Assembly (NCBI RefSeq): GCF_056712565.1
Contig: NZ_CM160072.1
Strand: one strand, 5' to 3'
DNA: 64,000 nt
Shown here: in pieces, positions 48,001 through 54,000 of the stretch
Layout: every line of letters begins with the position of its first letter
Numbering within the stretch: position 1 is the stretch's first letter
Program-made: the position numbers

Positions 48001-51000
48001 ATACCGCGTTGTGGGTAAATATACTGACTCATATTGCAAGATAATAATAATGGGGTAACTCCAGTTACCCCATTTACTATAATAGAAGGATTGATGTATG
48101 AAAAAGAATAAGTACTCAACTCCCTTATGGATGCTTGCCACGATTCTTGCGGGTATGCTCTCCCCTATGCAATCAGCGGTGAATGGTCAATTAGGTCACT
48201 GGTTACAGGATGGTAATGCATGCGCAGTTATCTCCTTTGCCAGTGGTTTAGTCGTGATGTTTTTTATTATTATGGCGCGAAAAGAAACCCGGCAACAATT
48301 TGCGGCAATTCCTTCTCTGATTAAAAACCGAAAAGTTCCTCTCTGGAACTGGTTTGCCGGTCTCTGTGGAGCGATGGTGGTATTTTCTGAAGGCGCATCA
48401 GCCAGCGCACTCGGGGTCGCAACGTTTCAAACCGCACTGATCTCCGCGCTATTGCTGTCTGGTTTACTTTGCGATCGCTTTGGTATCGGTGTCGACGAGA
48501 AAAAATACTTTACCCCTTATCGCATCATCGGTGCATTATTTGCGGTTATTGCTACGATTTTTGTTGTGTCACCGCAGTGGCATTCTACCTCTTTCATCTT
48601 ACTTGCCATTCTTCCGTTCTTAGCTGGTTTGCTTGCAGGATGGCAGCCCGCTGGAAATGCAAAAGTAGCTGAAGCTACGGGATCCATGCTGGTTTCAATC
48701 ACCTGGAATTTCATCGTTGGATTTTGTGTTTTAGGCACAGCGCTAGCTATTCGTGTCGCATTAGGGCACGTCACTGTTCAATTACCAGATGTCTGGTGGA
48801 TGTATCTTGGCGGCCCGCTTGGACTAATGTCTATCGGTTTAATGGCCATTTTGGTCAGAGGTCTGGGGTTACTGATGCTGGGGGTTGCTTCAACGGCGGG
48901 CCAGTTACTGGGATCAGTATTGATTGACGTATTAATTCCATCGCTGGGCAATACCGTTTATCTGGTCACGATCATCGGAACACTGTTTGCACTGGTCGGT
49001 GCAATTGTTACCACTATTCCGGAATACAGAACCTCGAAAACAATGAAGAAAATGGAGGTATAATCATGAAAGATTATCTACAAACTGTGACGGGCCCCGT
49101 CGCCCGTGAAGATATGGGGCTAACACTTCCTCATGAACATCTGTTCAACGATCTTTCCTCTGTTGTGGATGCTCCTTGCTATCCTTTTTCACAACGGCTT
49201 GTTGATAAAAAAGTCACGGCAGAAATCCAGTGGGCATTAAAACACGATCCTTATTGCTGCGCTGATAATATGGACCGCAAACCTATTGAAGATGTGATCT
49301 TCGAAATTAATAACTTTATCTCGCTCGGTGGTCGCACCATTGTTGATGCCACAGGGTCTGAGTCTATCGGACGAGATGCGCAGGCATTACGAGAAGTCGC
49401 ATTAAAAACAGGTCTGAATATTGTTGCTTCCTCCGGTCCCTACCTGGAAAAATTTGAAAGCCAGAGAATTCATAAAACGGTTGATGAACTGGCGGCAACG
49501 ATCGATAAAGAATTGAATCAAGGGATTGGCGATACGGATATTCGTGCCGGAATGATCGGTGAAATAGGTGTCTCACCGACATTTACCGAAGCCGAGCATA
49601 ACAGCTTGCGGGCTGCCTCGCTGGCACAGATTAACAATCCTCATGTGGCGATGAATATTCACATGCCGGGCTGGCTTCGTCGCGGTGATGAAGTACTCGA
49701 CATTGTGTTAGGTGAAATGGGCGTCTCGCCAAATAAAGTCTCTCTCGCACACTCGGATCCGTCAGGAAAAGACGTGGCGTATCAGCGGAAAATGCTTGAT
49801 AAGGGTGTCTGGCTGGAATTCGACATGATTGGCCTAGACATTACCTTCCCGAAAGAGGGAATAGCGCCAGGGGTGCAGGAGACTGCCGATGCCGTCGCTC
49901 ATCTCATTGAGTTGGGATACGCCGATCAGCTTGTTCTCAGCCACGATGTCTTCCTTAAACAAATGTGGGCTAAAAATGGCGGTAATGGCTGGGGATTTGT
50001 TCCAGATGTTTTTCTGGCCTATCTGGCGGAGCGCGGCGTCGATAAAACGATCCTCAAAAAACTCTGTATCGATAATCCCGGACGATTATTGACCGCATAA
50101 AACCATTATCCCCCGGCACACTGCGCCGGGGGATGTCAATTAATACCCCGCCGTTAAATCATCCACCAAGCGCGAGTCGGATGCGCCGTACAACTCACCA
50201 TCCGACCCAACCATAATGCTTTGCGTGCTGCCCATCGCCTCATTCAGCGCCACTTTCTGACCTTTTGCTTCCAGCAGCTTGAGCGTATCCGGACTAAACC
50301 CTTTTCAACACGCAGCTAGTCCGGCAACCACTGATGGTGGAAACGAGGCGCATTGGTCGCTTCGGCAACATTCATTCCACAATTGATGCTGTTCACCACC
50401 ATTTGCAGCACGGTAGTGATGATTCAGCTACCGGTAACAAAGTGAGTACATAAAGGCCATACTGTCACGAACAGTGCAAAAGTGGCTCTTCCGCAACCTA
50501 GGTGAAGATTTTCATGCCAGTGGACTCATTACCCTCCGCCTAAGTAGTTCAAATCCGGCTCGACCATACATCTGGCGTATCAGCACCTTCAGGCGATTTA
50601 CATGACCTTCGACAACACCATTACTCCAGCGACTGCTGATTGCCTCACATATAGCCGCAGCATCAGCTTCCATCCCCGCAGCTACGCACCGAAGTTCTGC
50701 TGAGCCGCTTTCGTGAACTCGAGTGAACCAGCTGCTTAGCTGTGATTTATTTTAGGTTTTCAGAATACGGTAGAACTCGAGTACCAGTTGCTGTGCTATT
50801 TTCAACTCCGGTTCTTTTTCACACATCAGACTAATAAATCGGGATGCATAATTTTCTTCGCCCCTGATTATTCTCCAGGGCATCAACCAGCGGCTTACCC
50901 GGGACACTGAAGGAAGTCTTGCGGCAGTAGTAACCGGTGGGTTCCAGCCTTTACGCCATTTGGCAACAGTATCCCTGACGATGGTTTCACTGCCTGTCCC

Positions 51001-54000
51001 CCCCTGGGCCACCATTTCCCGCCATATCCGGCTGGCATTATAATTACCACTTTCTCGTTGCTCTTTTAACCACTCCCTCCATGGGTCCAGAAGCCCTCGC
51101 TTTGGAGGCCGGGTTGACATTTCAGGGAATGTTCCTGAACGCACCCAGCGACTGACTGTCACTCGCGACAGGCCTGTAATACGGGATATTTCCCTGAAAC
51201 TACATCCCTTGTTATGCAGGGCCATAACCTCTGTCCAATGCTGATGCCGTTTTTTGCGGGTTTGCTGTTTAAGGCGTTCCGGACGACGGAGCGATGCTAC
51301 AGGCACAGATATTTCTGGCTCAGGTGATTTATTCAGTGATAACTCTCTGACAACAAGACGTATCAGAGGCATATGTCTGTACATCATTCGTTCAGGCTCA
51401 TCACCAATACTTTTTAGCAGGTGCCATCGATCGGCCACCTGTCTGGCCTGAGGTGCACCTTCACGTGCTGCTGTCGCATAGACTCCACTGCGATCACGCG
51501 AGACAACCTGTATTTCCGGATATTTTCTGAACCAGGTCGCCAGCGTACGCTGATCACGGCCGGGAAGCAGGACGAGGGGACGGTGAGTATCAAGATTGAC
51601 TATTAACATACCGCAGCAGTGGCCCCGATGCCACGCCCACTCATCAATACCGACATGAGGCGCGCCTGACTGTTTCGTCTCCGGGGTATTGATAACCCTG
51701 CGAAGAAGAGTATCAGCACTGCAACGGAGACCCGCTGCCGTTGCAGCCCGTTTTCCAGCCTCACCTCCAGCTATTAATCCCAGTTGACGTTGTAAATTTT
51801 GTAACGCCTGTGAAGACTGCTGGTGTGAACCGGCGAAGGGAGCAAGCGACTCGGCAAAAATTTTACGTTAACAAGCCGGGTTACGGCAGTACCAGTGGCG
51901 GACGGAAAATACAAGCCATAGCGTCTGCCCTGAGCAGGGTAGATGCTGTATCCGGCGCCGACGACAACTATGAACAGAGTCGCTACGCTTAAAGCATTCA
52001 GGACATTGTGCTGTTTTGCGTTTTCCGTGGAGATGGAGGGTTATACCGTCAGAGCTAATAATTTGTCGACTGCATCGCCATCCGCAAGGTAACTGTAGAA
52101 GTGTCTTAAGAGAGTGCATTGCGTTGCCCATAACTTAAAACAGCTTAGATCCTTGTTCGCCAGAAAGTTTCATCCATTTTCTTCCACCCAGGTTGCGGAA
52201 GAACCACTTTTCATCCGTCGTTGACAGATGTGAAGTATGCGGGAGAAAAAGTGAATATCTAACTGTAATAACTCAGACCGGTACGAGTACCCGGGACGTC
52301 TACAATCATTCAGGGCAAAGTGCTAAAATTTCTCTATCCCGGGATGCCCCTACCAACGCAGCACTCCCGGAGATATCATTACAGCTCTACAACTGATTTC
52401 CGCGACTGAACCGCTCAGTTCCTATCCTTCCAGTTGCCTTCCTGCAGCCCCCCCTCCCTGCTGTATACCCCGGTACCACAACGCGGGCAGCACTTTTCTC
52501 CTTCATAATCTTCGTCACACATCACACAAAACCACTTTCTCACCTTCACCGTATAATCCGGAACCGTCATACCCTGCAGATGCAAACGACGGGCCTCTTT
52601 CTCTGCCGGGTCAAGCCAGGTGCATCGCAGCAGGATTTTCTCAGCGACAGTCATCTGGTCATGTTCAAACCACGGTGGTTGTCCGTCATTGCCCCGCTGA
52701 AGTGTTAACGGGCATCCACAGGACACACAGCACAAAACGTCCTGGCGGTTGTGCTTCGCTGCTTCTTTCGCCGTAACAAAATGGCCTTTGCTGTCATTCG
52801 CCATATAACAGTTCAGAATTCGCATATTTCCTCCTGAGTTGTCCGGGGAATACTGAATCCTCCGGTCTGGCAGTGTGTGCAGTACCGCTCCCCATAATAA
52901 TCGTGGTGACATTGTCTGCAGTGCCAGCTGGCTTTACGCACCACGGGTAAGGCATCCGGTACGAATTGCTGCAGACGTTTAATCAACTGTATTTCTCTGC
53001 GCTCCGGCCTGACATAAGGGCACTGTTGACCGTGCTCTGTCAGCCTGTCGTCAGTGTGTTCAAACCAGGGAAGTTCAGTGTCGTATTGCGGATGGTATCT
53101 GAGTGCACTGCCACACAAGTGGCAGGTGTAGTGAGCATAAGGTGCGGCCTGTACAGTACGGGCGCCCGTCAGACGTCCGTTGCTATCAAGAGCGAGAAAG
53201 GATTTTGCGTACATAGTATATGTTCCTTACCGTCAGACGACACGCAGGCAACAGCCGTCCCGGTACGGGCAGCGTGGTCAGGTGTGAATGGCGGTTTCAG
53301 TTCAGTCTCATAAGGGAAAATCAGTGTGGTGGCCATGAACACGTCATCACACTGAAGTCAGATAACTCGTCTGTCTGGCTCAGCCACGACTGCAGCCAAA
53401 GTTGCGCTCACCGGTGCAGTGAGCTTTGGTATGCTCCTTCGCCAGATAGTCAGCACGTTCCAGCACTTGCTGAAAGCCGGTGTCATCATTACGCGCCAGC
53501 CACACCGCCGGCCAGGCCGGAAAATGCACCAGCGTGGCATGGCATCCGGCATCCACCCCCAGGGCACTGCACCAGGCCTGTTCAATCATTCCGGCCAGTG
53601 ATCCCGGAGCGCGGTAATCACCGGCACGACACCAGGTATCCCGGTTGACCAGCAGCATCAGATGATAGTGTTTTTTACCTTTGCACTCCCCAAACTCCCG
53701 GGCCCAGACGTAATGCAGAGTGGTGGGATGCACGCGTTTACCTTCCCGATGCTTACGTTTCTGGTAAGCGTCGATTCGGGCTTTCAGGGCATTGATGAAG
53801 CGGGATATCACAGCTGCGTCCGTTGCTGCCGGTACATCCGGGAAACGCAGGTCAACCCGCAATGCCGTCAGGCGGGGATGAACATTCAGTGCGTGCCGCA
53901 CTGTCTCACGAATACGTTGCTGCCAGAAGGGGTTGTATTTGTAGGTCATGGTTAAATCTCCGTATGGTTCATACGGAATAGCCACGTCGTAAAAAATGCG

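Follow-up and report, generated by a model that had tools for sequence, protein, structure and literature searches.

In Escherichia coli, the gamma-glutamyltransferase gene ggt, which encodes a protein of 580 residues, is present as one copy in essentially every genome. The RefSeq/PGAP annotation of strain CFT073 names in addition a gamma-glutamyltransferase pseudogene (C_RS27140, 'frameshifted; internal stop; incomplete; missing N-terminus') that adjoins an ISL3 family transposase pseudogene (C_RS27145, 'internal stop'), and equivalents of both are annotated likewise in Nissle 1917, O104:H4 and other strains. In CFT073 and Nissle the pair is flanked by a phosphotriesterase-related gene and by zinc-ribbon/YfjJ-type island genes. 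An intact relative of the insertion sequence (IS), ISEc38, is found on IncF plasmids and in the chromosomes of E. coli from mouse, dog and human, and has the same zinc-ribbon/DDE_Tnp_ISL3 transposase, a helix-turn-helix (HTH) insert in that protein, and flanks of IS100 type. Elements of the ISL3 family have ends that begin with GG and usually duplicate 8 bp of their target. We analyzed the same pair of pseudogenes in a 64,000-nucleotide stretch of contig NZ_CM160072.1 (NCBI RefSeq assembly GCF_056712565.1), which is referred to as the window. Both pseudogenes and their junction are already annotated, and the finding is an ordinary one of low interest in itself; the annotation is silent on the origin of the ggt fragment, on an IS110-family stub beside it, on the IS100 ends and on the polymorphism of the lesions. 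We consider it likely that the fragment is a non-functional 3' stub of ggt, which formed one end of a ~4.5-kb block, was brought into a genomic island of E. coli along with a neighboring sugar-utilization operon, and is capped by IS debris.

The ggt remnant lies on the minus strand at 50140..50438 and consists of the stop codon and the equivalent of residues 478-580, less four deleted codons, which amounts to the last ~103 codons or ~18% of the gene (~300 bases). Positions 50140-50433 match the 3' end of native E. coli ggt with 92-92.5% DNA identity, and tblastn detects the protein in two frames, residues 484-528 and 527-580, with a joint E of 4e-44; residues 484-580 are 89-93% identical at the amino-acid level. 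The remnant lacks what is encoded upstream of the break, including the signal peptide, large subunit and nucleophile Thr391 of the K-12-type protein, and tblastn found no further pieces of ggt in the window. Scored by alignment and tblastn against K-12-type ggt, the minus-strand reading frame carries a TGA at R486 (50424..50426; CGG > TGG > TGA, with TGG in other strains), a TAG at E522 (50316..50318; GAG to TAG, found only in the window lineage among the alleles compared), and an A-run that is one nucleotide shorter and shifts the frame (50302..50305). At this last site the T-run of the plus strand has four bases, not five, and GTCGAAAAAGGG in K-12 ggt corresponds to GTTG-AAAAGGG in the remnant. 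A probable 12-nt in-frame deletion (CCAGGCGGTAGC, residues PGGS) is placed between two CGGTAGC direct repeats, at 50426/50427. With two in-frame stops, one frameshift and this deletion, the remnant contains no open reading frame.

The original prediction had described a ggt-like C-terminal region with at least two nonsense codons, a one-nucleotide deletion in an A-run and an internal deletion. Alignment to intact ggt, one of the checks that it proposed, upholds this description: the remnant is related to ggt and each of the lesions is seen against the K-12 gene. An explanation of the lesions as sequencing or assembly errors was rejected, with the same 2.6 kb being identical in many independent complete assemblies. 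Compared with native E. coli ggt, the remnant is homologous over residues 478-580 and differs in its terminator, its neighbors, its truncation and its disruption. The terminator is a hairpin on the minus strand immediately after the ggt stop codon (50108..50134; a 12-pair stem with nine G-C pairs, and a T-rich tail), between the remnant and the convergent phosphotriesterase-related gene; a hairpin also occupies this position in Citrobacter and Salmonella, though with another sequence. Apart from this retained hairpin, which is predicted to close the convergent operon, nothing in the locus is predicted to be functional.

The neighboring genes point to where the fragment came from. The remnant is preceded in the window by a four-gene block, recognized by its open reading frames and NCBIfam matches (45963..50100, plus strand), that encodes a DeoR-HTH/PfkB ribokinase-like kinase (46058-47272), a GATase-like protein (47286-48044), a DMT transporter (48098-49063) and a phosphotriesterase-related protein (PTE; 49066-50100), all on the plus strand. 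When the PTE protein was used as the query in a scan of one genome per species, which returned no Escherichia, the same four-gene operon was found in the chromosomes of Citrobacter spp. and Salmonella enterica subsp. diarizonae with 86-88% protein identity, and in both it is followed ~50 bp beyond PTE by a convergent ggt. This ggt is full-length in three Citrobacter genomes, and in S. diarizonae it covers at least residues 413-580, up to the end of the contig data. Colinearity with these loci at the nucleotide level spans 45963-50433 of the window, with 76-77% identity over the block, and continues through the terminator into the remnant. The fragment had been called a paralogue; it instead terminates a block that shows synteny with Citrobacter and S. 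diarizonae, where ggt adjoins PTE. A former second ggt gene in E. coli would be the natural reading; the synteny corrects it, and suggests instead that the PfkB-GATase-DMT-PTE operon was linked to ggt ancestrally in the group formed by Escherichia, Citrobacter and Salmonella.

The divergence of the remnant adds to this picture. It is 92.5% identical to E. coli ggt versus 81-83% identical to the ggt of Citrobacter and Salmonella, and its 22 differences from K-12 are distributed over codon positions 1, 2 and 3 as 6, 2 and 14. Twelve of the codon changes are synonymous and nine non-synonymous, compared with 41 and five between functional orthologues; six of the replacements fall on residues that are invariant in all four orthologues. 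At the position of K-12 Leu503, the remnant keeps the ancestral Met found in Citrobacter and Salmonella. The pattern of codon changes, together with the hits on invariant residues, suggests that the fragment acquired part of its divergence while still a working gene elsewhere and the rest as a pseudogene. On the simplest reading, stub and operon were acquired together from an Escherichia-like lineage in which the ancestral linkage of operon and ggt persisted, and the stub has drifted since.

The remnant does not end at the ISL3 inverted repeat, as had been proposed. Homology with ggt stops at 50438, in the codon for residue 478, 24 nt short of the extended inverted repeat described below and 45 nt short of the GGCTCTTCC end of the ISL3 element at 50484. 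The 24-nt spacer (50439..50462, minus strand) contains what appears to be a stub of the left, transposase-proximal end of an ISEc45-like element of the IS110 family (50441-50461, minus strand). The tip of this stub lacks ~3 nt, and its other side breaks off at about nt 23, at the join with ggt. The stub matches 19 of 21 bases at 45717-45737, which is the left end of an intact ISEc45 copy elsewhere in the window, and it was also aligned directly to the ISEc45 left end; these two places are the sole matches in the window, and none are expected in shuffled sequence. Only ~22 nt of the element are present, with no transposase gene or right end, and the stub adjoins an IS100 end, not the IS66 tnpC sequence that adjoins the intact copy. 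An interpretation of the spacer as degenerate ggt was discarded: it does not align with ggt from E. coli or from Citrobacter and Salmonella, and the ISEc45 left end does match it. Because ggt abuts an IS110-family stub, an internal deletion would have created the junction, and the ISL3 element would not have cut the gene.

The ISL3-family element itself is a decayed copy of ISEc38. ISEc38 proper is 1722 bp long, with ends GGCTCTTCC...GGAAGAACC, and lies on the minus strand at 50484..52205; its terminal inverted repeats begin with GG (GGCTCTTCCGCAACCT at 50484, with the complement ending at 52205). The transposase pseudogene (50512..52131, minus strand) is interrupted by stops at codon 88 (TCA>TAA at 51868-51870) and codon 460 (CAA>TAA at 50752-50754). 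Its fragments match PF14690 and PF01610 (ISL3 zinc ribbon and DDE_Tnp_ISL3), and the intact homologue matches NF033550 with E = 6.5e-112. Independent ISEc38 copies are homologous over 50463-52226, which exceeds the GG...CC ends by 21 bp on each side, so that the boundary first assigned at 52210 is too short. Over this full unit of 1764 bp (50463-52226), the window copy differs from intact ISEc38 at 78 sites (95.6% identity) with no indels, and the core is 1722 bp long in nine of ten further copies and 1723 bp in the other. The transposase had been described as fragmented, which holds in that it has two nonsense codons, but it remains colinear with intact ISEc38 throughout. The window copy thus differs from intact ISEc38 in its two nonsense codons and in lacking a flanking duplication.

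The 21 bp on either side of the ISEc38 core are ends of IS100, a member of the IS21 family. On the left is an outermost repeat of the IS100-type left inverted repeat (IRL; TGTCACGAACAGTGCAAAAGT, 50463..50483) and on the right one of the IS100 right inverted repeat (IRR; ACTTTTCATCCGTCGTTGACA, 52206..52226), which extend the inverted repeat to 43 nt (50462-50504 / 52185-52227). At 22 of 22 bases (52205-52226), the right arm agrees with positions 58783-58804 of a complete IS100 copy in the window (58783..60736, minus strand; 1954 bp, with the 5-bp duplication CAATG), and the same 21-mer also ends IS100 of Yersinia pestis pMT. The left arm has two mismatches in 22 with the IS100 IRL. As terminal repeats, the arms are of the TGT...ACA form that IstA recognizes. 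Only these 21 bp per end remain of IS100 at the junction; istA, istB and the interior are missing, and the sole gene between the arms is of ISL3 type. Two other interpretations of the arms, as the outermost stretch of an extended ISL3 inverted repeat and as a palindromic target of generic type, were set aside when the search for an uninterrupted arm-arm site revealed the IS100 end.

In ~16 contexts (loci L003, L009, L094-L099 and L107-L116 among them), every end of the ISEc38 core meets an IS100-type repeat, always at one and the same position. Both orientations of the core occur with respect to the IRL- and IRR-type arms, and in some cases the core lies between two IRR-type arms. In one copy (L108/L111), it is inserted in a 36-bp solo IS100 IRR with TGAAAAGT on both sides, a canonical 8-bp duplication of ISL3 type that covers repeat positions 14-21. 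ISEc38 therefore appears to home into the terminal inverted repeats of IS100, 21 bp inside the end. Outside the arms, IS100-type duplications of 5-6 bp are found in five other contexts (GGAGC, ACAAA, GTACT, GGAGG and CGGAGG), and IS100 copies themselves have the duplications CAATG and GAAAAC. In the window, the outer boundaries of the arms read CATAC versus GATGT and show no IS100-type 5-bp duplication, so that the arms probably stem from two separate IS100 copies, or else one of the flanks was exchanged afterwards. The 8 bp next to the GG...CC ends also differ (GCAAAAGT versus ACTTTTCA) and form no 8-bp duplication, as the original prediction had noted. These flanks belong to the inner portions of two IS100 repeats in opposite orientation, and a direct repeat is not possible at this boundary. 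The adjacent deletion that had been proposed survives in part: loss or exchange of DNA is still implied, but on the basis of the missing outer 5-bp duplication and not of the 8-bp flanks.

Together, these observations are consistent with the following history. The block, comprising the DeoR/PfkB kinase, the GATase-like protein, the DMT transporter, PTE and the convergent ggt, would have been carried in from an Escherichia-like donor, in which the operon stood next to the organism's own ggt as it does in present-day Citrobacter and S. enterica subsp. diarizonae. A deletion would then have taken the 5' 1.4 kb of ggt, with endpoints at ggt codon 477/478 and ~23 nt inside the left end of an ISEc45-like element, the tip of which had earlier been hit by IS100. 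ISEc38 would subsequently have targeted the IS100 terminal repeats, inserting 21 bp inside their ends, and the IS100 body may have been lost through recombination between ISEc38 copies or through double-ended capture. DNA between two different IS100 copies was probably lost too, because no outer 5-bp duplication is left. The resulting composite of PTE, ggt', ISEc45 stub, IS100 end, ISEc38, IS100 end and zinc-ribbon/YfjJ-type module would have been fixed before it spread through E. coli, and has since decayed neutrally, which the sequences show directly.

Several points weigh against this history. No genome was found with the donor arrangement at >95% identity, in a scan of species representatives that returned no Escherichia, and for this reason we only infer the donor. 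The ISEc45-like stub is weakened as evidence by its length of only 21-22 nt with 19 of 21 matches. The call of the 12-nt deletion in ggt rests on five extra matching bases (GTTAC), which makes it likely rather than certain. The right flank (52227-52439) was not found without an IS: every inspected E. coli genome that carries this flank has the ISEc38 junction, the genomes fetched for it being two full-length matches chosen for chromosomal position or sequence divergence. With the same junction in all of the inspected right-flank genomes, the order of the IS events is not reconstructable. Comparison of the ISL3 flanks in related strains, which the original prediction had advised, thus shows the same junction with either a decayed or an intact IS, but no right flank free of it. 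Finally, the arms could alternatively be explained by a 1764-bp unit that moves as a whole on its IS100 ends.

In this last alternative, the unit of ISL3 core plus IS100-type ends is itself mobile and was inserted once; the lack of a 5-bp duplication would result from a later swap of one flank, by homologous recombination with a further copy of the unit or of IS100 in another part of the island. The exact extent of the unit is common to many independent copies, it occupies 8-13 places in some strains, the five sets of 5-6-bp duplications lie outside its arms, and an IS100 copy is present 6.5 kb away in the window. We nevertheless regard this explanation as doubtful: the core can face either way with respect to its IRL- and IRR-type arms, IRR-core-IRR (B-core-B) forms exist, and one core lies in a solo IS100 IRR with an 8-bp duplication and a single arm. 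The variable orientation and the solo-IRR copy are better fitted by targeted insertion of the 1722-bp core than by mobility of the whole unit, although the two models are not exclusive for the copy in the window. On plasmid pRHBSTW-00673_2 (L014, ~2501-2536), there is a 36-bp element in which IRL positions 1-15 are joined to IRR positions 21-1, with a GGGAG repeat on both sides. Such an arms-only element may be either the footprint left by loss of an ISEc38 core or a miniature IS100 derivative.

It is improbable that the fragment is a second full-length E. coli ggt paralogue that decayed in place and was cut directly by insertion of the ISL3 element, with an adjacent deletion removing the target duplication. 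The lesions are real, no duplication is present, and the remnant is nearer to E. coli ggt than to the gene of other genera, all of which this explanation accommodates. It does not account for the 24 nt between the end of ggt homology and the extended repeat, which hold an IS110-family stub and are followed by an IS100 end, nor for the colinearity through the terminator with the operon beside the sole ggt of Citrobacter and Salmonella. Moreover, a longer ggt beside PTE is absent from all 5426 complete E. coli genomes, and in every copy examined the 8-bp flanks are halves of IS100 repeats. That the strain's own ggt gave rise to the remnant by recent partial duplication or by gene conversion, with the lesions being assembly errors, is scarcely credible: despite the high similarity to native ggt and a native-like patch in strain MLI104K2 that resembles a short conversion, the fragment has 7.5% differences from native ggt, including the ancestral Met of Citrobacter and Salmonella, a downstream terminator and PTE synteny unlike those of the native locus, and the identical sequence in many independent complete assemblies.

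Of more interest than the ggt stub is a by-product of this analysis, the relationship between ISEc38 and IS100. IS4321 and IS5075 of the IS110 family insert into the terminal inverted repeats of Tn21-family transposons, and thus home, as ISEc38 appears to do, to a set position within the repeats that end a different element. They differ from it in being DEDD recombinases that are now thought to be RNA-guided, whereas ISEc38 has a DDE transposase of the ISL3 family with an IstA-like HTH insert. The intact ISEc38 transposase (539 residues; L003:643-2262) matches the ISL3 DDE profile in two pieces separated by ~145 residues; the corresponding stretch of the window is 50752-51609. Residues 302-398 of the insert are 34% identical to IstA of IS100 (E = 3e-11), match the NCBIfam IS21 model (E = 1.6e-16), and match residues 10-107 of IS5376 IstA (PDB 8B4H and 8Q4D; E = 2e-10), with no other matches in the PDB. 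In IstA, the aligned stretch is the tandem HTH-1/HTH-2 module, by which the terminal repeats are read (PMC10122671). From this similarity, we infer that the insert may steer ISEc38 to IS100 ends.

On Klebsiella IncF plasmids (L006-L008), an ISL3 element that is 73-74% identical to ISEc38 has the same architecture, and its arms, TGTTACCAACGGTGCAAAACT and TGTCAACAACGGGTAAAAAGT, resemble a different IS21-family end. The association of ISL3 elements with IS21-type ends would therefore be old or recurrent. We propose, tentatively and as somewhat less than an even prospect, that ISEc38 and its Klebsiella relatives constitute an ISL3 subgroup that homes into IS21-family ends by means of a captured IstA-like module, and that the resulting arm-core-arm chimeras, which retain the outer ends and duplications of IS100, may be mobilizable by IS100. 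If true, this would be a natural case of target choice gained by domain capture, and would account for the apparent absence of direct repeats that is routine among ISEc38 copies. A search of the literature for ISEc38 or for ISL3/IS21 chimeras, with ISfinder outside its scope, found only lists of mobile elements and no account of such homing.

The junction is widespread and old. Positions 49900-52500 of the window are 100% identical in CFT073, Nissle 1917, 536, ABU 83972, IHE3034 and many other extraintestinal E. coli, and ~47% of complete E. coli genomes (2529-2580 of 5426) have the PTE-ggt'-IS junction. Decayed junction copies are up to 2% apart from one another, which indicates that the junction is old. 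The codon-460 stop of ISEc38 is common to all five decayed junction copies compared (window, pARG01, MLI104K2, O104:H4 and BEN2908), the codon-88 stop is found in the window lineage only, and pARG01 has a stop of its own at codon 113. In Z1322HEC0010 (chromosome 4202967-4205030), an identical ggt'-stub-IS junction contains an intact ISEc38 of active type, which 13 differences separate from the reference and 85 from the copy in the window; most simply, the dead IS may have been replaced by an active copy through conversion.

The lesions in ggt show a similar layering. The 12-nt deletion and R486W occur in every remnant allele compared, the A-run frameshift in the window, O104:H4, BEN2908 and pARG01 alleles and not in MLI104K2, and the TGA at R486 in the window and MLI104K2 alleles only. 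The 12-nt deletion, R486W and the codon-460 stop of ISEc38 are old and shared, the A-run frameshift is widespread, and the TGA, the TAG and the codon-88 stop of ISEc38 are lineage-specific. The lesions differ between strains and can therefore be dated relative to one another. Decay of the remnant and the IS in successive steps, as the original prediction supposed, agrees with this polymorphism. In MLI104K2, the equivalent of window 50300-50320 lacks the frameshift and the TAG and equals native ggt at three adjacent variant sites, and its IS copy is almost identical to that of the window; the patch looks like a short gene conversion from native ggt. The polymorphic ggt lesions could act as phylogenetic markers for the island. 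The ggt stub carries little weight in itself, and serves as a neutral marker of how a widespread E. coli island module was assembled.

The remaining features of the region concern the left side of the block and its surroundings. An Rfam scan of 49800-52600 matched zero families, and a search for an ISEc45-like end joined to an IS100 end elsewhere gave chance or IS100-only matches. The left border of the syntenic block is formed by an IS66-family remnant (45742..45949, plus strand) that comprises the 3' part of tnpC and the right end ...ACGCTTAC, and that PGAP labels 'IS66 family transposase, frameshifted, incomplete' in CFT073 and Nissle. The intact ISEc45 (44303..45741, minus strand; transposase 44549-45682) is inserted in this tnpC remnant and is absent from CFT073 and Nissle. 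All complete ISEc45 copies examined occupy one site in IS66-family tnpC, between C(T/A)(T/C)(T/A)ATG and TTCTTCGG, which indicates strict target specificity. Compared with CFT073, the window strain has extra IS2 and ISEc45 insertions upstream and is without an ISEc10 copy downstream. At 42588-43865 of the window, upstream of the IS66 remnant, a 1278-bp segment with IS2-type open reading frames stands in place of ~180 bp of CFT073.

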